Origin: Pachysolen tannophilus NRRL Y-2460
Lineage: Eukaryota
DNA length: 64,000 bases
Reading direction: 5' to 3'
NCBI GenBank assembly: GCA_001661245.1
Contig: KV454016.1
Coordinates: forward strand, 433,381-497,380
The position numbers and the translations under genes are program-made. Numbering within the stretch: the stretch's first letter is position 1; every line of letters begins with the position of its first letter. This document shows positions 6,591 through 43,846 of the stretch, piece after piece. Under the pieces are notes generated by a model that did not search any database, had not been told where the DNA came from, and was given only the letters and a program-made list of their open reading frames with translations.

Positions 6591-7208
6591 CTATACAAAC
6601 AATACATGATCTCTAACCATTTTATTTAACTTTGAATTAAACTGTTGTAATTCTGTGAGTCGTACAATATCGCAACCTTTTAAAGAAGTTACTATTCGTA
6701 TAATATTTGGTGTAGATAATCCTGTAATTCTGGACCAATAATTTTCATCATTATTATTACTAGATAGAATAAATGCACCTAATATTAACTCTTTTAAACA
6801 ATAATTATCACATTGATATTTGAGTTTATAATTTTGTAATACCAAAACTGATTTCTCATAATTCTTCAAGCTGAGCCGACTTCTAGTCAATAGCAGTTTA
6901 GCAAAAATATATAACTCATCAAATTTAACATCATTTTGAGGAAAAATATCTAATATACAACTAAGAACAAGTTTAACAATAAGATCCATCAATTGATACC
7001 TTTCATGATACAAATCAACATTTTCAGATTCATCTTCTGAAGAAAAATCAGAATCATATTTATTATTATAATAATTTTTTAGTCCATCATCTCGATGGTA
7101 ATTTCTATCCTGCAGTTGCAGATTTTTTTTTGGAAAAAAATGTCCCGAATCCATTATAGTTACTGGTGGTGATAATGAAACATCATGACAGTTTGAACTC
7201 ACCCCCAT
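6591..7208 (-). CDS. Small protein with a degenerate Pho80/Pcl-type cyclin box; syntenic with YPL039W
   Basis: LLTRSRLSLKNYEKSVLVL...ELILGAFILSS...YWSRITGLS resembles the Pcl5-like pattern LRRSR.S....ALYYL...FLAALILASK...WSKISGL; lies between MET31/32 and ISM1. Start uncertain (7208 or 7154). Confidence 0.55.
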   Translation of the reverse strand: MGVSSNCHDVSLSPPVTIMDSGHFFPKKNLQLQDRNYHRDDGLKNYYNNKYDSDFSSEDESENVDLYHERYQLMDLIVKLVLSCILDIFPQNDVKFDELYIFAKLLLTRSRLSLKNYEKSVLVLQNYKLKYQCDNYCLKELILGAFILSSNNNDENYWSRITGLSTPNIIRIVTSLKGCDIVRLTELQQFNSKLNKMVRDHVLFV

Positions 7209-8360
7209 TATAGTCACAACCTTCAACCTCAAATCAACCAAGTTCAAGTCACCCTCCCCACTATAGGAACAAATAAGTATATTTTTTTTTGTGTTTTTTT
7301 TTATTATTTTATAAATGAAGTTTCTCTTTGTTTATGACTCAAAACTAAAGAAAGAAAAAAAAAAAAAAAAAAGAAAAAAAAAATTAGAGCAAAAAAAAAA
7401 GCCGCATCGCATCTGGATCAAAAATTAGGGGTTTAAAAACAAAGGGGAAAATTAAAAGGTGAAGATGTTGTTGTTATTTTTTTATTACACATTTTATATG
7501 ATCATTAGCCAGATGCCAATGAGATGGCAATAATTTGTATGGTATTAAAGATGATAATGTTGTTGTTTGTTGCTACTACTACCACTACTACTACCGATTG
7601 ATTAAAAAAAAAAAATTGAAAATTTATCTTTTACTCTTTAACAACTTCCCTAAACAAAGAGCTAGTTCCTTATATTACATTGAGTACACAATAACATGAA
7701 CTACCAAGACTAAACTTGTTCAAAATACAATTAAGCAATCTCATTTCCATGATGGAATGAATCAATTGCTAAAAATCATTGAAATTTACAACAAGAAATT
7801 CTGATCAGCAAATACCAAGGGGGTTTATACGCTTAATACGAGAAACCACTTCAAGTTCGAGATTCAGTATCAAGATATGCACCAAATGACGGAATCAAAT
7901 TTATCAATTTAAACATTCAATGAATATCCTTTTTTTTGAAAAGTCCTGAATAGCGGTGGTAAAAGCCCAACTTTACATACCACACACTTACTCGCAGAAA
8001 GCTTAGCTTAGCTGTTGTTGTTAGCTATAAAGTAAGAAGAGAAAAAAAAAAGGCGCTGTATTAATGACACGTGTTTTACATTTACACACTTACACTCACT
8101 CTCACACACACACAGTGAATAAAAAGCGCTCATTGTTCCGGCTGGTCGATGCATCGTCTGCCATTTTGTGTTTTTTTTTATTTTTTTGAAATTTTTCAGC
8201 GTTATCTTGCACGACCATAATTTTCCACCATCGTTTTTGCACTGGAGTTTTTTTTTCTTTTAAAGGTTGGTTAACTACGATTTCTGGAAAGCGTATTATT
8301 GTTTGTCATAATATATATATATCTAAAGATTTTTTTTCTGGCCGTATGGTATATTAGAGG

Positions 8361-19152: not shown

Positions 19153-19671
19153 CCTCTCACCTCGTAGTCAAACTGTCAAAACCAAAACCACACAAGGGGG
19201 AGGAACCACTACACTAAACTAACCTAACTAACTAACTGACTGACTGACTGATTATTTCTAACCTACCTATGCTCTCTAGGTTGAAAAAGTTTTTAAAAAG
19301 TTTGAACTTTCTAACTATCATCATCGCTTCCACTAAAGTTTAGTACCGCTGAAAAATTCAAACGCTTCTGACCTTTTTAGTGCGTACTTATATTGCGCAT
19401 GAAAGCACACATTACAAACCTTGTGCGTATCCCAAATGCGGTATTAAACCTTCTATTGTTTTTTTTTGATTTTTTTCTTTTTTGAATTTGCATTTGCCCT
19501 TTTTCACGGTATTAATGATTTAAACCTGCCCTTGAAAAGCGAATGAGCACTTTTTTTTTTTTTTTTTTCAGCGATTCCTTTCCTAGGGGAAAAGTTGAGT
19601 TGAAATATATAAATTAAATCAATCATATATATGTACTGGTTGGAACTGCTTTAGATTTGAAGCAACATAAG

Positions 19672-20980
19672 ATGTCGGACGTAGAGGTAATTGGAAAAGG
19701 GGCACAACTGTCGAATCATGGGGTTATTAAGATAGGTACTAGAAAATCTGCTTTGGCAGTGGTACAAGCTGAGTCTGTTGCTGCTGAAATACAAACAAAG
19801 TTTCCTGGTTTAAGTACAAAGATTACAGCGTTATCAACTTTGGGTGATCAAATGCAACATAAACCTTTGTATTCCTTTGGTGGGAAGTCATTGTGGACAA
19901 AGGAGTTGGAAATATTACTTTTAGAAAGTGTTGGAGAGCATGATAAAATTGATTTGATTGTTCATTGTTTAAAAGATATGCCAACAAGTTTACCTGATGA
20001 ATTTGAATTGGGTTGTATTTTGGAAAGAGAAGGTATGTGTAAATTGAGATTCTTTTCTTTTGAAATAATTTTTTTTGAAATAATTTTTTTCTTGCTTTAT
20101 TCTTCATGATGATTTAAAAGATTTTTTCAGACGTTAGACTTCCTAATTTATATTGAGGATGAATCTTTATTCTGATCTTATATATTGCAAAGAAGAAAAT
20201 GAGGTTTTTTTTTTTTTTTTTTTTTTTTTTCTTTGAACAATTGATACTAACAAGAATTTTTTTTTTTTTATCTTTTACTTAGATCCAAGAGATGCATTGG
20301 TTATGAAAGCTGGTTCGAGTTACAAGTGTTTAGGCGATTTACCGGATGGTTCTGTAGTAGGTACCTCATCAGTTCGTCGTTCAGCACAATTATTAAAAAA
20401 TTATCCACGTTTACGTTTTAAATCTGTTAGAGGAAATATTCAAACAAGAATTTCTAAATTAGATGATCCAGATGCAGATTTTTCATGTTTATTACTTGCA
20501 GCTGCTGGATTAATAAGAATGAACTTACACAATAGAATTACACAATATCTAGACGAAGACAATATGCATTATGCTGTTGGACAAGGTGCATTAGCACTCG
20601 AAATTCGTAAAGGTGATGAATATATCCGTCAAATATGTTCCAAATTGAGACATGATGCAACAACATATTGTGGTCTTGCAGAACGTTCATTATTAAGATT
20701 TTTAGAAGGTGGATGTTCCCTCCCCATTGGATGTATTACTAATTACGATGAAAACAGTAAAATCTTACGCATGAAGGCAATGGTAGTTAGTTGTGATGGA
20801 ACTGAATCTGTAGAACAAAATTATAGTGCAAAAGTTGAAACTGATGATGATGCTGAAAAATTTGGTATTGCTATTGCTCAATTTTTGTTGGACAATGGTG
20901 CAAAGAAAATATTGGATGATATTAACTACGACAAGATTGAGGAAATAAAACAAGCTGGAATCACCAAGGGCACAAATTAA
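19672..20980 (+). CDS. HEM3: Porphobilinogen deaminase; two exons, join(19672..20032,20283..20980)
   Basis: IKIGTRKSALAVVQ, GGKSLWTKELE, VHCLKDMPT; splicing gives ILERE-DPRDALVMK; GTSSVRRSAQL, LEGGCSLPIG. Confidence 0.95.
20033..20282 (+). other. Spliceosomal intron of HEM3 (250 nt)
   Basis: GTATGT at 20033, TACTAAC 20245-20251, TAG 20280-20282; removal restores the reading frame. Confidence 0.93.
20102..20179 (+). ncRNA. Intronic box C/D snoRNA, snR58-like (predicted guide for 25S rRNA Cm663, S. cerevisiae numbering)
   Basis: Box C ATGATGA 20106-20112; guide AGACGTTAGACT 20129-20140 is complementary to 25S AGUCUAACGUCU; D'-like CCTA 20142-20145; C'-like TGAGGA 20154-20159; box D CTGA 20172-20175. 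Confidence 0.75.
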
Positions 20981-22360: not shown

Positions 22361-24184
22361 TTAATTTTCAATATTTCTAAAATTCTTTTTTAGCACATAT
22401 TGATTTTTTTTCAATTCTTCAGGTATTCTAGTAAATTTCGAATTGGATAAAAACTTGTATAAATCGTATAATATATCTTTATCATCATCTTCATTTAAAA
22501 AAGTTATAGCCTTACCTTTCTTTCCAGCTCTACCAGTTCTACCAATCCTATGTGTATAATCTTCTACAGTTTTCGCCATTTGATAATTTATTACCAAAGA
22601 AACATTATTAATATCAATACCTCTACCTGCAACGTCAGTAGCAATCAAAATATCCTTTTCACCATTTTTAATTTGTTGAATTGCCTGTTCTCTTTTCTCT
22701 TGAGATTTAGAACCATGTAATGTTACAGATTTAAATCTTTCCTTCATTAATTTAAAATTCAAATCTTCACATGTTTTTTTATAATTAAGAAAAATTATTA
22801 TTGGTGGTTTGTATTTATTAGAACTCAATAATTGTAAAATCTTCAGGAATTTTTTATCATCAGATGATATGAACTCAACTTCTTGTGATATTGTATCCAG
22901 AGTTCTATTAACAGATACAAGACCGCCACCACTACCGCTACCGCCACCACGAATATTACTCTTGTCACCAATAACGACAATATTTGGTTTATATAAATAA
23001 TTTTTCGCAATTTTTTCAATCGAAGAAGACATTGTAGCTGTAAACATCATTGTAGTTCTTCTTGCTTCTCCAATTGATGGAGTTGATAAAGGTAACATTT
23101 CAAGGATTTTATTAACTTGTTCTTCAAAACCCATATCGATCATTCTATCTGCCTCATCCATCACCAAATATTTGCATTGGTTGAAGACCAATATCTTCCT
23201 TTCTATACAATCAATCAACCTTCCCGGCGTTGCTATTATTATTTCACTCCCATTTTTCAATTTATAAATTAATTCTTCAAATGAGTGACCACCAATAATG
23301 GAACAACAATTTAAATCATAACTATGATTTATTTCTTTCAATTTAATTAAAAATTTTTTAAATTCTTTTTCAATTTGTAAAGCCAACTCTCTAGTAGGCG
23401 CCAATACCAATACATAAGGTCCATCATTTTGAGTCATATCATCTAATGGTGGCAAATTTAATAAATTAGATAATATAGGTACTATAAATGAAAGGGTTTT
23501 ACCAGAACCTGTCTCAGCTATACCAATAATGTCCAAATTATCAATTGCTATTGGGATAGCTGCTCTTTGAATTGCAGTTGGCACTGTAAATTTCAAGCTA
23601 TGCAAAATTTCTAAAACCTCAAAAGGCATAGAACTTTCATCAAACGATCTTAATGGCGGTTTAACTTTACTATTACCACTACTATTACCACTATTGGACT
23701 TTATTGTTATATTGAAATCTTCCTTCAAAATTCTCCAATCCCGATCAGTCATCTCCTCTAAAGACTTCTCTGACCAGTGTCTTAGCTCACTATCATCACC
23801 ATGAGCACCAGCACCATTTTTCACATGACTAGCTCGATAAAGCTTCATCGATGGTTTTTTCATTACTATTGGATTATAATCCTGCAACGTATCATCTTCA
23901 GCATCCCAATCAAACTCAAACTTCCTACTGGGTTTCAGTAAAGCACGAGATGCACCATTAACAATCTCTCTCTCATGTTTTTCTTCTTTCTGCTCCTCTT
24001 CCTCCTCAAAAGTAGAGACTTTTATTTTCTTAATAGGTTTCTGTCTCTTCTCATCTTCCTGTTTTCTCTTTAAAGATTCCCTCTTCGGTTTGGACAAAAA
24101 CTTTGGCTTCGTGAAATCATCCCCACCACCCTTCTTAAGCCTCAACAACTCCTCCAATGACAAAGGCTCTTTCCTCAGCGACAT
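22361..24184 (-). CDS. PRP28: DEAD-box splicing helicase Prp28
   Basis: KFEFDWDAEDDT, HWSEKSLEEMTDRDWRILKEDFNI, AETGSGKT, DEADRMIDMGFE, HRIGRTGRAG; first ATG at 24184. Confidence 0.93.
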   Translation of the reverse strand: MSLRKEPLSLEELLRLKKGGGDDFTKPKFLSKPKRESLKRKQEDEKRQKPIKKIKVSTFEEEEEQKEEKHEREIVNGASRALLKPSRKFEFDWDAEDDTLQDYNPIVMKKPSMKLYRASHVKNGAGAHGDDSELRHWSEKSLEEMTDRDWRILKEDFNITIKSNSGNSSGNSKVKPPLRSFDESSMPFEVLEILHSLKFTVPTAIQRAAIPIAIDNLDIIGIAETGSGKTLSFIVPILSNLLNLPPLDDMTQNDGPYVLVLAPTRELALQIEKEFKKFLIKLKEINHSYDLNCCSIIGGHSFEELIYKLKNGSEIIIATPGRLIDCIERKILVFNQCKYLVMDEADRMIDMGFEEQVNKILEMLPLSTPSIGEARRTTMMFTATMSSSIEKIAKNYLYKPNIVVIGDKSNIRGGGSGSGGGLVSVNRTLDTISQEVEFISSDDKKFLKILQLLSSNKYKPPIIIFLNYKKTCEDLNFKLMKERFKSVTLHGSKSQEKREQAIQQIKNGEKDILIATDVAGRGIDINNVSLVINYQMAKTVEDYTHRIGRTGRAGKKGKAITFLNEDDDKDILYDLYKFLSNSKFTRIPEELKKNQYVLKKNFRNIEN

Positions 24185-24631
24185 ATCCAACAACAAAATT
24201 AGAAATATAATTACAAATCAGAACAATACCAATCTATCTATATCTTTAATACCTCTCCCATCCAGTAATGGAGGGCCCAAAAAACCCAAAAAAACCAAAA
24301 AAAGGCTAAAAACAAATGCATACTTTATTGGGAAGTCAAAAGTGTAATTACCCAATGGGGAAACTGTTCCCGTTTAGGAAATTGTTTTTTTTTTTTTGTA
24401 ACTTTTTCCGAATTTTGATTTTGTTTGAAATTTTCTTTGAGTTTTTCCCTCAATTTGTTAACAGCGGTTAAAGAGAAGAAGAATAATTAGTGTGTTTTGA
24501 TTAGGACAAAGGTTAAGACAACCAGAGTGGATATAGGTATATCTTCAATTGATAGGAATCAGATTGGTATAGGAAGTTGTCAGAGCAGCTAGTGATTTGA
24601 TAAAGTTTTGGCTTTGTTTATTCGTTAATTG

Positions 24632-24746
24632 GTATGTATTTATTAGTTATAGTAATAGATGGATTTTGGATTTTGAATTTGAAATCTACGTGTCTTCAAC
24701 AATTGGATATTAACAATTTTTAATTTCGTTTCTTTTAATATACTAG
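24632..24746 (+). other. Probable 5'-UTR intron of SEC26 (115 nt)
   Basis: GTATGT at 24632, branch-like TATTAAC 24708-24714, first downstream AG is TAG 24744-24746, 44 nt before the SEC26 ATG; no ATG seen in the ~130 nt before the donor. Confidence 0.5.
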
Positions 24747-24790
24747 TTCATCTATCATCACGGAATAAGATTTATAACATTTGAGGAAGA

Positions 24791-24822
24791 ATGGCAGACG
24801 TGGCATATACTTTGGTGAATGA
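24791..24822 (+). CDS. SEC26: SEC26 (beta-COP) coding exon 1, MADVAYTLVN(D), separated from its intron by an inversion
   Basis: ATG GCA GAC GTG GCA TAT ACT TTG GTG AAT GA; matches the beta-COP N-terminal AYTLV motif. Confidence 0.85.
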
Positions 24823-25860
24823 CTTTTTAAGTAATTTAACAACATCTTCAACATTTCTACTAGAAATTAATTGTAAAGTGATATCAATTGCTCTTCTACG
24901 AACTTCTAAATCTTGTGATGATAAAATTCTTAAAATTTCTAAAGTTAAATCGTCCAACATACCAGGATGATTCTTATGAAGTTCCAATACTCTTTCTAAA
25001 GTGATCAATTTAACATTATTATCTGGTTCTTTTATAGCCAATTCAATAAATTTAGAAGCTGCTGCTGTTACAGCAGTTGGTGAATGAGACAATATAGTCA
25101 ATGTTGTAGCTGCTTCATATATGACTGTATTTGATGTTGTATCCAACAAATCAGAGATAATACTTAAATATTGATTTCTTAAATCCGAATGTTCAACAGC
25201 ATCTTTACGAATGAATTCAACAAATGATAATTGTAATAAAGGATCTAAAGTGGCTAAAGATTGCAAATTATCTTGAATATAACGTAATGCGGATTCTCTT
25301 TGTAAGCTACCAAGACAAACAAAAGCATTTCTTTTGCAAGTTGAATCAGTTTCTACAGCCAAGAAATCAACTAATAAATCAGCAGCATCAAAGATTAAAT
25401 GTTCTGAAACTTTAAAAATGGAATAAATTGCAAATACAGCATTTTTACGAACATAAGCATGACGATGTTCTAAGCATAATCTTGCTGAAGCAACCAATGG
25501 TTCCAATAATTCTGGTTCTTTTAATTTTGATAAAAATCTTAAAGTATTTCCTCTAATATATTCATTTGGATGTTGTAAATCATGTTGAATTGCATTACAA
25601 ACCAAGATCATTTCTTGCTTTAATTTACCATCAGGTTCCAACTTGGGGCAAATTTCCCAATAAAAATATAATAATTTTTTCAATTCTTTATCTTTTGAAG
25701 GCATTACATAACGTATAACATACATCAATAACTCAGGCATCAAATTACCATTCAACATGGTAATTAAAATCCTTCTCATAGCATCAAGCTTATCTTCATC
25801 TTTGCCCTTTTCCAACAGTGATCTAAACTCTTGAACAGAAGTCTTGGATGAATTATTTGG
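24823..25860 (-). CDS. SEC26: SEC26 (beta-COP) residues ~12-357, inverted relative to the rest of the gene
   Basis: After the TAG acceptor: PNNSSKTSVQEFRS.LEKGKDEDK...HPNEYIRGNTLRFL...SRNVEDVVKLLKK; similarity ends at ~24823. Confidence 0.92.
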
Positions 25861-25965
25861 CTAAAAAAAAAAAAAAACAAAACAAACAAACAAATATGGA
25901 ATTGTTAGTATAATAAATTAAACAAAAAAAACAAACAAGCAAACAAAAACAACACAAATACATAC
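25861..25965 (-). other. SEC26 coding-region intron (105 nt) inside the inverted segment
   Basis: On the - strand: GTATGT from 25965, TACTAAC 25910-25904, TAG 25863-25861. Confidence 0.88.
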
Positions 25966-25966
25966 A

Positions 25967-27781
25967 GAATTACAGAAAACTTCAAATTCAAACGAAGAAA
26001 AATTTGCAGAATATAGACAAATCTTAATTTCTGCAATTCATTCTTGTGCTATTAGATTTGCTGAAGTTGCTGCAAGTGTTGTTGATCTCTTATTAGATTT
26101 TATGGGTGAATTAAATACAACTGCAGCAGTAGATGTTATTACATTTGTTAAAGAAGTTGTTGAAAAATTCCCAGCTTTACGTACTTCAATTATCCATAGA
26201 TTGATCACTGCATTATCTAAAGTTAAAAGTGGTAAAGTTTATAGAGGATCGTTATGGATTCTTGGTGAATATTGTCTTGATGAAAAAGATATCTTGGATG
26301 CTTGGAACCATATTAGATCATCTATTGGAGAAATTCCAATCTTAGCAAGTGAAAAGAAAGCTTTACAAGATGCTGCTACAGGAACTGGATCTGATGAAAA
26401 AGAATCAAAGACAAATGGTGCTGTTTCTCATAAACCAGTTGTTCTTCCTGATGGTACATATGCCACTGAGAATGCAATGACTGTTGATACTGCAACTAGT
26501 AATGAGGCAAAATCTGAAAGACCACCAATTCGTCTGTTAATTTTGGAAGGTGATTATTATCTTGGTGCGGTATTATCTTCAACTTTAGTTAAATTAGTCT
26601 TGAGATTTGAAGAAATAACACAAAAATCAAAGGTTAACGTTTTAAATGCATTAAAAGCTGAAGCTATGTTGATCATGGTATCTATATTAAGAGTAGGTGA
26701 TTCATCATTTGTTAAACAAAAGATTGATGAGGACTCTTCTGAAAGAATTTATTGTTGTATCAATTTCTTGTCAGAAGATAACAGTTCAACAGATTCTAAA
26801 GAATTTAAATTAATTGAATCTGCCTTCTTAGAATATACAAGAGAAGCATTTAAGAAACAATTAGAAATTGAAGATAAAAAGAAAGCCAAGCAAGATTCTG
26901 ATGAATTGGAAAGAAATGCAGAAAAAGTTGATGATTCGATTGTTTTCAGACAATTATCAAAAGAAGATATTAAAGATGTAGTTGATGACGAGCTATTGGC
27001 AGATCAAAACGTGGTGGCAACTACCAAGAAAGAAGATTTATCATCAAGACTTAATCATATTGTTCAATTAACAGGATTTTCTGATCCTGTTTATGCTGAA
27101 GCATATGTAAAAGTCCATCAATTTGATGTGGTTTTAGAAGTGTTAGTTGTCAATCAAACAACTGTTACTTTACGTAATCTCTCTGTAGAATTTTCAACTT
27201 TAGGAGATTTGAAAGTCATTGATAAACCAACCACTTCAAACATTGGACCTCATGGTTTCCATAGGGTTTCCACAACAATAAAAGTTACATCAGCCGATAC
27301 AGGTGTCATATTTGGAAATATTGTTTATGATGGCCAACATGCAAACGAGTCTACCATTGTCATCTTAAACGATGTTCATGTTGATATCATGGATTATATC
27401 AAACCAGCATATTGTAAAGAAAATCAATTCCGTAAAATGTGGAATGAATTTGAATGGGAGAACAAGATTACTATCAAGTCCACTTTGCTTACATTACAAA
27501 GTTATCTCGATCTGTTGTTGAAAGGAACAAATATGCAATGTTTAACGCCTGGTGCTATAATTGGTGGAGACGAATGTCAATTCTTATCTGCTAATTTATA
27601 TTCTAAATCTTCTTTTGGAGAAGATGCTTTAGCGAACTTGTGTATTGAGAAGAAAAATGATGGCCCAATTGTTGGTCATGTTAGAATCAGATCTAAGGGA
27701 CAAGGATTGGCATTGAGTTTAGGTGATAGAGTTGCTTCTGTCGCTAGAAAGACAAATAAAAGTGTTACTGCTAGTGTTTGA
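25967..27781 (+). CDS. SEC26: SEC26 (beta-COP) C-terminal ~604 residues
   Basis: Open frame from 25967: ELQKTSNSNEEKFAEYRQILISAIHSCAIRFAEVAASVVDLLLDFMGELN...LPDGTYATE...QLTGFSDPVYAEAY...RIRSKGQGLALSLGDRV. Confidence 0.93.
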   Translation, partial: ELQKTSNSNEEKFAEYRQILISAIHSCAIRFAEVAASVVDLLLDFMGELNTTAAVDVITFVKEVVEKFPALRTSIIHRLITALSKVKSGKVYRGSLWILGEYCLDEKDILDAWNHIRSSIGEIPILASEKKALQDAATGTGSDEKESKTNGAVSHKPVVLPDGTYATENAMTVDTATSNEAKSERPPIRLLILEGDYYLGAVLSSTLVKLVLRFEEITQKSKVNVLNALKAEAMLIMVSILRVGDSSFVKQKIDEDSSERIYCCINFLSEDNSSTDSKEFKLIESAFLEYTREAFKKQLEIEDKKKAKQDSDELERNAEKVDDSIVFRQLSKEDIKDVVDDELLADQNVVATTKKEDLSSRLNHIVQLTGFSDPVYAEAYVKVHQFDVVLEVLVVNQTTVTLRNLSVEFSTLGDLKVIDKPTTSNIGPHGFHRVSTTIKVTSADTGVIFGNIVYDGQHANESTIVILNDVHVDIMDYIKPAYCKENQFRKMWNEFEWENKITIKSTLLTLQSYLDLLLKGTNMQCLTPGAIIGGDECQFLSANLYSKSSFGEDALANLCIEKKNDGPIVGHVRIRSKGQGLALSLGDRVASVARKTNKSVTASV

Positions 27782-28129: not shown

Positions 28130-29050
28130 TTATAGTAAATATTTTGGGATTCTTTCACTTCCAATGAATGGTAATCCATAAGCACTTAGCACTGTTCTAG
28201 CTTCAGCATCAATTTGGGCACTTGTATGGAAAAGTATATCCATACCAAAAGTTTTTGGCCAAAGATCTTGATTTGCTTCAATTTCAGGGAAAAATCTTAC
28301 TTCATTTGGAGTCAATCCAAATGAGATATTACCATACCTATCACCTGCTCTATTACTAATTCCTTTAAATTCTCTTATTTTAGGTAATACTAATTCTGTT
28401 AATGTAGATAAAAATTGAGTCATTTCTCTACCTTTTAATTCCACTTTAGCACCCATTTGCATACCAGGTCTAAGTTTCCAAGTTGGTACATTTGTCTTGG
28501 CATAAATTGGACGTGGTTTAACACCAGTAATTTGTTGTAATTGTAACATTGCTGAAATACTAAATCCTGTATTTTCCTTTGCTTCTTTAACAAATGAACT
28601 AAGAGTAATTCTTTCAATATTTGGAATATTTTTCCATGTTCTTGCTTTAACCGTTGGTGATGGAACTTTTTCACCACGAGGATGTCTATCAGGTCTATTA
28701 ATATGATATGGAGATGAATAATCCCATTCTCTACGCTTATTACCAACAACATCTTCTTGATCATGCATATAATTAATTAAAAGTAAATCTGATGCCAAAG
28801 TATTATCATAATGTTCAACAACACGATCCTGGTGCGTCGTCGTAGGCTTAAACTTTGGAGATCTTATATCATTTGGCTCCAACTTCAATTCAGGATACTT
28901 TGGAGATAATAACTGTTTAATAATCTTAATACGATGATGAACAGGTTTAACCATAGCACATCCAACCCTATATTGAATAGAACTCGATGAAAATGAACGG
29001 CATGATACCGTTATTCCTCCATACACAGATGACTGCAAACCAACAAACAT
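28130..29050 (-). CDS. MRPL7: Mitochondrial ribosomal protein uL5m
   Basis: [58 protein letters not shown]; adjacent to SEC26 as in S. cerevisiae. Confidence 0.92.
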
Positions 29051-29605
29051 ATTCTCTCTCTCCTACTTGCTCTTCAAAACCTAATCACAAATATCACAAA
29101 TATCACCACTTGTTTAATTATATCTTTCCAATTCTTGTCGTCGGTTTCCTTGGTCCAATTTTGGATGAAAAATTTTTGACGGACAAAAAGGAAGTCACGT
29201 GATTTTTGACCCGAATTTTTTTGGTATGTTTTGAATAAAATTTCAAAAAAAAACAATAATGAAGGACATAAATCTATTGAAATAGTTTTAATTATATTTC
29301 AAGTCAGTTTAGTTTCCATTTATTTGGGTATTGACGGGTCTTTTTTTTTCTTTTAGTGTTGTTGTGTTGCAGAGGAAGCGGTGTTGGAAAATTTTTTTAG
29401 GTTTTAACCATTTTTTTTTTTCATATTTGTTGCTTTTAAGAAGGAAGAATTGAAAGAAAAGAAAAGTAGAAGTAGAAGAAGAAAAAAAAAAAGAAGCGCT
29501 GGTTTGAAACTGACACTAAAAAATATTGCAGTTTTAAGTTGTACCCTGAAAATAGATATATAGCTATTGTTTGAAGAATAGGTTTTTTTCGAGGTTTATT
29601 GGAAG

Positions 29606-40827: not shown

Positions 40828-43293
40828 TTATTTCTTGATCTCCTCTCCTATTAAAGTGGAAGGTGTGCTTTCTCTTGTGCGACTATCTTCAGATTGTGCG
40901 TATAATTTTCTACTTCTCCCCGCCCCAGTGTCGGTAGCTGCAGCTGCTGCTGCATTAGCATTAGCAGTATCAGCGGTAGTAGTAGTAGTAGTAGTAGTAG
41001 GAGTAGTAGCGGTCCCACCAAGGTCCACCACCCCAACAATTTGAAAATCGCTATTATCTATTGTTCTGGATTTTGGATTTTTCAATTTTAATTTCTTCTT
41101 TTCGTATCGTATTTGTTGCTGTCGTTCATAATTTAATTCTTTTTCTGTAATTATTTTTAATAAATCATCTTTGCTCAGAATTAAATCAGTCATAAGTTGA
41201 TTGGCAAAATTGATGTCACCTTTGATTAGCTGATCATTTTCATTTTTAATATAAGCTATATGCGGTCGTAAAATTAAATGCATAAAGGGAATGTATCCTA
41301 TTTTGCCCTCTAAGTTTAATAACATTTCCCTTTCTTTACCTAAAGTTGAAATATCGTTTATAATAGCATATAGACTAGATAAACTCACTCTTGATAAATC
41401 ATTGCTAATCCTAGTAATTATTAATTTTCTTCTTCTTAATTCATCTTGTTCTTTGTATAATTGTTTTAATGATTCATATGAAATACTTGGTATGATAGAA
41501 TCAGGTAATTCTAATAACCATATTTTCAAAATTTGAATCAATTCTTTTTCATCAAGTTCAATTTTTGTCATATATTTTTTTTTCATAAATTCTAATGATT
41601 CAAAATTTAAACAATTGAGCCATAATTCTTTATCTTTAATTCGTGATAACGTATCATATAGAAAAAATGGTAATGATTTTTCATGAACTTCAACTTTGGC
41701 AAATTCTGATTTCTTTCTATAAGTAGATAAATCAGATCCAAATAATGGTGGGAAATCTTCATCGAAATTTGTTATTTCTCTTTCAGTAGCTCCTAAAATT
41801 TTAATTCTTGAATAAATTGAATTATATAATGGATTCACTGAATAAATCCCTCCATTTGTATTATTTTTGATAACAACTTGTGTCAATTCTTTTAAATGAT
41901 TCTCTAAATTATCTTGATTATCAACAAGTTGATTCATATCTTGTAATATTTTTAAATTTGTCAAATGATCTTGTTGTAAAATTTTAGTCAATTTGTTAAA
42001 AACATTGTATATGAATTCAACTCTACTATATTCTTTTTCTTCAATTTCTTTGTTAATTTGGAAAATATTTGTTTCCAAGTTTGATCTTAATTCACTCCAT
42101 TCAATATATAAATCTTTTGCCCTTTCAGATAATAATTTTTCATTTTCCTCCAAAGATTGAATATTGTTTCGATTAGAAGTTGGAATATAAGTTGATAAAG
42201 ATGATAAAAATTTAGGCAGCAGCTGTAAATCTTCTTCTAATTTCTCAATTTTTACACCTTGGGGATCAAAATTCATAATAAATTTATATAAATCAGTATA
42301 TTCAAACCATAAAGATTCATCATCACTTTTAAATTTACCAAATTTTTTAGTCAAGTTACCTATTTGTAAAAATTTGTAATCTAATAATGATTGACCAATT
42401 TTCTCAATTTGAAACCTACTCAATGCTTGATTTTCTTTATTAATACATCCATTAACAGAACCAAAATTAATTTTTCTACTAGGAATGATATTTTTCAATA
42501 ACCAATTTTTAAAATCTACAACATTAAACGTTTCAACACTAGTTGTTACAAATGGGAACTTGCTGATAGTTTTAGGTAACGTGGAATACATGTGATTCAA
42601 AAACCCACATAATTGGTAATGATCGTTAAAAGTTAAAGTACCATCACCTAAAATCAATGGAAATTCAATTGGATAACCCTCTGTAGATTTGAAATTATCC
42701 AAACTTGTAGTACTAAATTTTGAAGTAATGAAATTAACAGAATTAAAAACAGATGAACCAGAAGGTGTCCTGCTTCTCTGCAAATTTATACTTTGAGAAT
42801 TGGGCACAGAACCTATCTTGAATTCATGCAATTTATTAAGATTACTGATATACTGTTGCTCTAATTTTTTCAACTCTTTTGATTTTAAATTATATGCATC
42901 TAAATTACCTAATAATTTTTGCTTACAATCATCAATAAAATTCTTGTATGATTCAATGAATTGATTTAAAGGTACTATTAACTTGATTTGTAATATTTTA
43001 GTTAAAACTAACTTTGAATCAAAATGATCTTGTAATTTACCCAAAATTGAATTAAACAAGGAATTTAAATCTTCTTCAAATAAATTTTTCTCAGAATTTT
43101 TAATAATCAAATCATGACCATTATCATAACTCCTAGTAACACAATTTTTTTCAAGCATTTTCAAAAAATTATTTTGGAAAAAAATTAAACTTGAATAATT
43201 ATGATCCAATAATGAGATGCTATTCTTAATACCCAATTCATAATTCAATGACCAACATCTATTACTTAAATGGATGGCTATATCATCCACCAT
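40828..43293 (-). CDS. Divergent F-BAR/DEP/RhoGAP protein (Rgd2/Rgd3-like)
   Basis: N-terminal CWSLNYELGI (F-BAR start), DEP-like EKIGQSLLDYKFL, LFGSDL and LKIWLLELPDSIIPS RhoGAP signature. Confidence 0.65.
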   Translation of the reverse strand: MVDDIAIHLSNRCWSLNYELGIKNSISLLDHNYSSLIFFQNNFLKMLEKNCVTRSYDNGHDLIIKNSEKNLFEEDLNSLFNSILGKLQDHFDSKLVLTKILQIKLIVPLNQFIESYKNFIDDCKQKLLGNLDAYNLKSKELKKLEQQYISNLNKLHEFKIGSVPNSQSINLQRSRTPSGSSVFNSVNFITSKFSTTSLDNFKSTEGYPIEFPLILGDGTLTFNDHYQLCGFLNHMYSTLPKTISKFPFVTTSVETFNVVDFKNWLLKNIIPSRKINFGSVNGCINKENQALSRFQIEKIGQSLLDYKFLQIGNLTKKFGKFKSDDESLWFEYTDLYKFIMNFDPQGVKIEKLEEDLQLLPKFLSSLSTYIPTSNRNNIQSLEENEKLLSERAKDLYIEWSELRSNLETNIFQINKEIEEKEYSRVEFIYNVFNKLTKILQQDHLTNLKILQDMNQLVDNQDNLENHLKELTQVVIKNNTNGGIYSVNPLYNSIYSRIKILGATEREITNFDEDFPPLFGSDLSTYRKKSEFAKVEVHEKSLPFFLYDTLSRIKDKELWLNCLNFESLEFMKKKYMTKIELDEKELIQILKIWLLELPDSIIPSISYESLKQLYKEQDELRRRKLIITRISNDLSRVSLSSLYAIINDISTLGKEREMLLNLEGKIGYIPFMHLILRPHIAYIKNENDQLIKGDINFANQLMTDLILSKDDLLKIITEKELNYERQQQIRYEKKKLKLKNPKSRTIDNSDFQIVGVVDLGGTATTPTTTTTTTTADTANANAAAAAATDTGAGRSRKLYAQSEDSRTRESTPSTLIGEEIKK

Positions 43294-43846
43294 TTTTCAC
43301 TGTTTCATAGAAGTTTTCAAAACATATATAAAAAATTTACCAAAACAAAAATGATAAATACAATTTATCTACTTACTGGTGGTACAAAACATGACGGTAT
43401 TAAATAAAAATCAATAGTACCTTTTATAAAGAAAGATAAAGACACTAAACTTGATGAAGTATTAAATGCATGTTTCTCGAAAATGCACACGACTGTACAA
43501 TATGTCCGAACCCTACAAAATACTAGTCAAACTAGTCAAAACCAATTGATATTAATGATATTAATAATATGTTGAACATTATATATATATGTTTTATATA
43601 AGTGTTTTTTTGATTTTTTTATTTTGTTGCCTTTCAATGTATGGAAATGTTAAGTGAAAGTAAACGTTAACAAAAATTAATTTTGAAGAGGCAAAATAGT
43701 AATAAAAAAAAAAAAAAAAAAAATTAAATGAAAAAAATGGTTATGTTGAATCCTGAATCCTAATCCTGATATATGAATTACAAAAAAAAAAATTTCCGGC
43801 TTAAATTTATGTTATGTACAAGAGCATAAAATGCGCATTAAAGAAC

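Follow-up and report, generated by a model that had tools for sequence, protein, structure and literature searches.

An inverted 1,144-bp block within the SEC26 (beta-COP) gene of the Pachysolen tannophilus NRRL Y-2460 reference record probably reflects a local misassembly

In a 64-kb window of contig KV454016.1 of the yeast Pachysolen tannophilus NRRL Y-2460, which is the whole stretch of DNA analysed here and to which all coordinates refer, one SEC26 gene for the coat protein beta-COP is split into three pieces, and the middle piece is written on the opposite strand. With a probability of roughly 0.87, this flip is a local misassembly of the deposited reference assembly and not a biological rearrangement. 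A misassembly is favoured because contigs from two studies, independent of each other, disagree with the record at its left junction, because the gene that the flip would destroy shows no decay, because no second beta-COP copy was found in the deposited proteome, because SEC26 is essential in Saccharomyces cerevisiae, and because no repeats, microhomology or recombinase were found. The parts of the gene as written in the record are given below.

24791..24822, + strand: SEC26 exon 1 minus its last base, with the ortholog-like N-terminus MADVAYTLVND; contigs of the public sequencing runs X1, X4 and X5 match it up to 24822.
24823..25966, strand not assigned: the reverse-complemented block of 1,144 bp, which on the - strand spans the gene from the last base of exon 1 through the intron to codons 12-357.
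25861..25965, - strand: the intron, 105 nt, low-complexity and T/G-rich, with a GTATGT 5′ site, a TACTAAC branch point and a TAG 3′ site.
24823..25860, - strand: first part of exon 2, codons 12-357, the Adaptin_N trunk (Adaptin_N 2-343); deposited protein P0182 is 100% identical.
25967..27781, + strand: second part of exon 2, codons 358-961 and the stop, with the rest of Adaptin_N, Coatamer_beta_C and the appendage platform; deposited protein P0062.
25896..25907, + strand: spurious first exon MELL (ATG GAA TTG TTA) of the deposited model, within the backwards intron.

Exon 1 begins with the ATG at 24791 on the plus strand, encodes MADVAYTLVN and the GA of codon 11, and ends at 24822, beyond which the plus frame runs through 50 junk codons to a stop. 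The minus frame 25860..24826 (345 residues) matches the Pfam profile Adaptin_N over positions 2-343 of 524 (E 9.8e-77), and the plus frame 25967..27778 (604 residues) matches positions 353-476 of the same profile (E 2.5e-22) together with the full lengths of Coatamer_beta_C (1-137 of 137, E 1.2e-55) and Coatomer_b_Cpla (1-128 of 128, E 1.4e-55). The Adaptin_N parts on the minus and plus pieces are consecutive, and they are accompanied by the coatomer beta C-terminal region and the appendage platform that characterize beta-COP.

Reverse-complementing the block 24823-25966 in a script gave a colinear gene with an exon 1 of 11 codons, a 105-nt intron of the form GTATGT...TACTAAC...TAG, and a coding sequence of 2,886 nt, or 961 codons, in which the sole stop is the terminal one. 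The fragments therefore carry no sign of decay, as judged from the 961 codons without an internal stop and the intact splice signals, in agreement with the remark of a first-pass annotation, made from the DNA letters alone, that they contain no stops or frameshifts. The colinear protein was aligned with 10 full-length budding-yeast orthologs of 927-971 residues, and the alignments extend from end to end, with 614-702 identical residues over 924-952 aligned positions. At the first seam (YTLVND|PNNSSK), the pattern YTL[IV]..PN is found in eight of the 10 orthologs, the other two (P0063 and P0069) having no residues there; at the second seam (VKLLKK|ELQKT), a near-identical string is present in all 10. 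Within 20 residues on either side of the second seam, nine of the 10 orthologs align without a gap; the exception is P0169, with an insertion of 8 residues specific to it. Over the full length of the protein, the orthologs keep register through the two seams, and the gene is an unremarkable representative of the beta-COP family. The proposal of the first-pass annotation that SEC26 is scrambled is confirmed in this respect, as re-inversion yields a 961-residue frame that aligns across both seams far beyond chance.

Regarding the orientation of the block in the organism, evidence was taken from contigs built from public sequencing runs, and such contigs lose rare variants. Runs X1-X4 come from one sample and one study, and X5 comes from another sample and another study and carries another organism label. 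Five public runs contain 0.95 of 332 sampled words from 23800-27000, indicating that the gene body is present in them; no RNA run appears among the runs listed. The contigs of X1, X4, X5 and X6 were compared with the window, and those of X6 do not lie over the left junction. The contigs of X1 (565 nt, depth 183), X4 (4,727 nt, depth 169) and X5 (4,727 nt, depth 119) agree with 23800-24822 without a mismatch and run 110 letters beyond 24822, where they do not fit the window. The 30 letters shown past 24822 are the exact reverse complement of 25937-25966, a string that is unique in the window; therefore, exon 1 is joined in these contigs to the start of the intron in the normal orientation (GAT|GTATGT...). 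The colinear left junction was found in all three covering runs, which represent two samples and two studies, at depths of 119-183 and without a branch, and the left junction of the window itself was found in none of the four runs compared at the level of contigs. The unbranched passage at 24822 speaks, by inference, against a common second allele, which would split the assembly graph. The sequencing data thus contradict the record at the left junction, where only the colinear orientation appears in the contigs of the three runs, rare variants being lost in such contigs. The first-pass annotation had held that raw reads which all support the colinear gene would mark the flip as an artefact; the contigs of three of three runs come close to this, for the left junction only.

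The contigs also settle the limits of the block. The first-pass annotation had left two choices, 24823-25966 and 24824-25965, which give the same protein. In the contigs, the base that follows 24822 is a T, complementary to the A at 25966, so that the block is 24823-25966 (1,144 bp) and the second choice falls away. It comprises the final base of exon 1, the whole intron (105 bases) and the 1,038 bases of codons 12-357. Of the two breakpoints, one precedes the 5′ splice site by a single base and the other coincides with a codon boundary; the earlier placement of a breakpoint at the 5′ splice site was thus right as to nearness and off by this one base as to position.

The inverted arrangement is present in the deposited record itself, as two of its protein entries reveal. 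The best database match of the C-terminal piece is P0062, listed as a hypothetical protein from strain NRRL Y-2460 of Pachysolen tannophilus, with 605 residues and 100% identity, encoded on a contig of 1,128,252 bp. P0062 starts with MELLKTSNSNEE, and from its own residue 5 it is identical to the colinear protein from residue 361. Its first four residues, MELL, are encoded at 25896-25907 inside the backwards intron and are followed by GT. The window reads ATGGAATTGTTAGT at 25896-25909 and TTACAGAAAACTTCA at 25970-25984, where the AG at 25974-25975 precedes AAA ACT. The exon-intron layout suggested by these letters would place the intron of the 605-residue model at 25908-25975, spanning the right breakpoint, and the MELL exon with its GT(25908)...AG(25975) splice seems to be an annotation artefact of the flip. 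Because the MELL exon is encoded in the backwards intron, the gene caller of the depositor worked on the inverted sequence. In addition, P0182, a protein of 257 residues on record, comes from a contig as long as that of P0062 and is 100% identical to the minus piece; its match to the colinear protein begins at residue 12 of the latter. These two entries bear directly on whether the flip was introduced in silico after deposit, during preparation of the window. The base-perfect junctions do resemble a cut followed by reverse complementation, but the MELL start of P0062 lies in the backwards intron, the probable model intron crosses the right breakpoint, and the 257-residue fragment of the minus piece was already on record, so that an edit after deposit is almost certainly not the explanation. 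The processing artefact entertained by the first-pass annotation, insofar as it meant a step after deposit, does not hold, since the deposited 605-residue model already starts in the backwards intron. No second beta-COP of Pachysolen tannophilus appears among the protein matches listed (120 for the C-terminal piece); among these 120, the next match after the 100% one is 73% identical, and the best of 61 longer proteins listed is 56% identical. The deposited proteome as written would lack an intact SEC26 copy.

No sign of a biological inversion mechanism was found at the breakpoints or among the reading frames scanned in the window. The longest reverse-complement match within 40 nt on either side of the breakpoints is 6 nt, and matches of at least that length occur in 416 of 500 pairs drawn at random from the window; direct matches at the breakpoints do not exceed 7 nt, which 251 of 500 controls also reach. 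Terminal microhomology is 0 in all four comparisons of the breakpoints, and none among the 25 longest of 109 inverted pairs in 24500-26300 has an arm at each breakpoint. The earlier statement that the junctions lack an inverted repeat holds, the 6-nt match being at chance level. A Pfam scan of the 29 open reading frames of at least 180 residues across the 64-kb window revealed no recombinase, integrase or transposase family at E values up to 1e-5; 27 of these frames match ordinary cellular families and two match none. The companion statement, that no transposon end lies at the junctions, likewise stands, as no transposon was found at the breakpoints and no transposase family in the 29 frames. 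As no homology was found at the breakpoints, a repeat-mediated inversion and a template-switch inversion were both rejected.

These results weigh against the idea of a programmed invertible or scrambled SEC26 that is switched or reassembled through recombination, whether site-specific or homologous, much as the flip/flop MAT region is. In favour of the idea, the species has one experimentally confirmed invertible region, the MAT region described in PMC6692504, so that inversion switches do occur in this yeast. However, the MAT system needs long inverted repeats and the SEC26 breakpoints offer 6 nt; the 25 longest inverted pairs include none with an arm at each breakpoint; no recombinase occurs among the 29 reading frames; and no purpose is apparent in turning off an essential coat subunit. 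An invertible switch would have repeats or recombination sites at both ends, and none were found there, nor was a recombinase gene found nearby among the 29 frames of the 64-kb window. A scrambled gene of the ciliate type would show pointer repeats at its junctions and an unscrambled somatic copy; no such repeats were found at the breakpoints, where direct matches reach 7 nt and terminal microhomology is 0, and the host is a budding yeast. A programmed SEC26 switch is therefore given very little chance of being correct. The first-pass annotation had offered a rearrangement or an artefact as alternatives, and the evidence divides them: the artefact, as an assembly error, gains from the colinear contigs of three out of three runs, and the invertible or scrambled gene loses for want of flanking repeats or a recombinase.

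A real inversion in the culture, clone or library behind the reference, heterozygous or subclonal and absent or rare in the runs compared, is another alternative. It would account for the presence of the flip in the deposited record, its base-perfect junctions could be produced by blunt end-joining, and a minority form can escape contigs. Against this, such an inversion would cut a gene essential in S. cerevisiae and leave a 61-residue junk frame after exon 1, with no second beta-COP copy found among the protein matches listed to replace it. The colinear left junction appears at full depth and unbranched in three runs, which represent two studies, and an assembly consensus follows the majority of reads. 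The vegetative phase of P. tannophilus is probably haploid, in which state the flip would be lethal. Such an inversion is accordingly considered unlikely, and the further notion of a real structural variant in the sequenced culture that could hint at breakage and rejoining associated with splice sites or introns is quite improbable. A real inversion would be a curious event, free of repeats and beside a splice site; the evidence points the opposite way.

An orientation error in the reference assembly would explain the observations as follows. The 1,144-bp block 24823-25966 would have entered the deposited NRRL Y-2460 assembly the wrong way round, probably during assembly or finishing, and the DNA of the organism, to judge from the read-derived contigs, would carry a normal colinear SEC26 in which the right junction is presumably colinear too. 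The consequences would be the truncated 605-residue model with its invented four-residue exon, and the N-terminal part would be left as an orphan fragment on the opposite strand. The data given in PMC13232491 place a public assembly of the strain in the 10^4 bin for contig N50 and the 10^6 bin for scaffold N50, with <2% N; this assembly was put together from many small pieces. The DUST score exceeds the 95th percentile of the window for 64-nt windows starting at 25823-25926, and the other breakpoint lies in normal sequence. Assemblers tend to break within low-complexity sequence, and breakage in the low-complexity intron may explain the nearness of a breakpoint to the splice site. Several points weigh against an assembly error. 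An N gap or a repeat usually accompanies mis-oriented assembly pieces, and the window is without any N; low-complexity sequence lies beside one breakpoint only; and a blunt flip that leaves no N, neither loses nor duplicates a base and has no repeat at its ends is unusual for a misassembly. Furthermore, the colinear junction was seen at the left only and the right one follows by extension, the evidence consists of contigs and not raw reads, so that a minority inverted form could escape, and the record may have been assembled from DNA other than that of sample S1. Taken with these reservations, the flip is best filed as not being a real feature of the organism.

Further observations were made on the contigs and on the window. 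Over 24823-27000, the comparison placed two short contigs of X6 and otherwise chance pieces of 20-33 nt from long contigs that are unrelated; a filter leaves some records out of this comparison, so that gaps in it carry no weight as evidence. A joint in the contig placement described as skipping 156 and 1479 letters belongs to the chance pieces of unrelated long contigs and was rejected as a candidate junction. Exact anchors of 32 and 43 nt of unchanged sequence on either side of the block were found in 0 metagenome contigs. The two X6 contigs, 25005-25213 and 26257-26512, come from a run of 1.47 million letters under a third organism label and are at least 99% identical to SEC26, which suggests that the same yeast is present at low depth in that sample. 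At the T-run 24375-24387 (13 T), between the DEAD-box helicase gene and SEC26, the contigs of X1, X4 and X5 have one extra T behind 24384; the record thus departs from the reads elsewhere too. The deposited proteins show Ala at CTG (FRSALEKG against FRSLLEKG under the standard code), as expected of a yeast with the CUG-Ala code (NCBI table 26), and SEC26 has three CTG codons.

Both neighbours of SEC26 look intact: at 22361-24217 on the minus strand lies a DEAD-box helicase gene with a DDX23-like N-terminal motif (PRP28-like), and at 28130-29062 on the minus strand lies a gene for a ribosomal L5 family protein, probably mitochondrial. The porphobilinogen deaminase gene (19618-20980, plus strand) was considered as a second flipped gene and rejected, its N-terminal exon lying upstream on the same strand. 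The main reading frame of this gene is without profile positions 1-95; exon 1 ends at about 20070 and exon 2 starts at about 20290, with an ordinary intron between them. The two reading frames without a Pfam match at E values up to 1e-5 are 6594-7331 (minus strand, 246 residues) and 40831-43296 (minus strand, 822 residues). No tRNA genes were found in the window.

In a widely used reference record of a CUG-Ala yeast, the model of an essential coat protein appears to be wrecked by a 1.1-kb block in flipped orientation. The correction for the record would be a SEC26 protein of 961 residues instead of the 605-residue model. Ortholog sets, completeness scores and comparative studies that draw on the deposited proteome will take beta-COP as truncated. 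The locus can also serve as a calibration case for genome scans, in which base-perfect and repeat-free flips with undecayed fragments call for a check of the reads first.

Among known inversion systems, template-switch micro-inversions of the four-point model likewise place a short inverted stretch within a gene; they are much shorter and use local reverse-complement homology, whereas the SEC26 block measures 1,144 bp and has a microhomology of 0. The flip/flop (FF1) MAT region occurs in the same species and is a DNA segment able to lie either way. As described in PMC6692504, it is an invertible segment of 8 kb between inverted repeats of 2 kb, with inversion induced upon nitrogen depletion, in contrast to the SEC26 block, which spans 1.1 kb, is without repeats and cuts through coding sequence. 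With local inversion misassemblies of draft genomes, in which a small graph node or contig is placed in the wrong direction, the SEC26 block shares a conflict between the record and the read-derived contigs at the junction, no loss of bases, no decay, a gene model broken at the junction and an abutting low-complexity intron, although here there is no N gap and no end repeat. As for the product, the domain order Adaptin_N, Coatamer_beta_C, Coatomer_b_Cpla is that of SEC26 of S. cerevisiae and COPB1 of animals. Compared with the coatomer beta subunit, the protein itself is no different, and it is only the orientation of codons 12-357 and of the intron that differs in the record.

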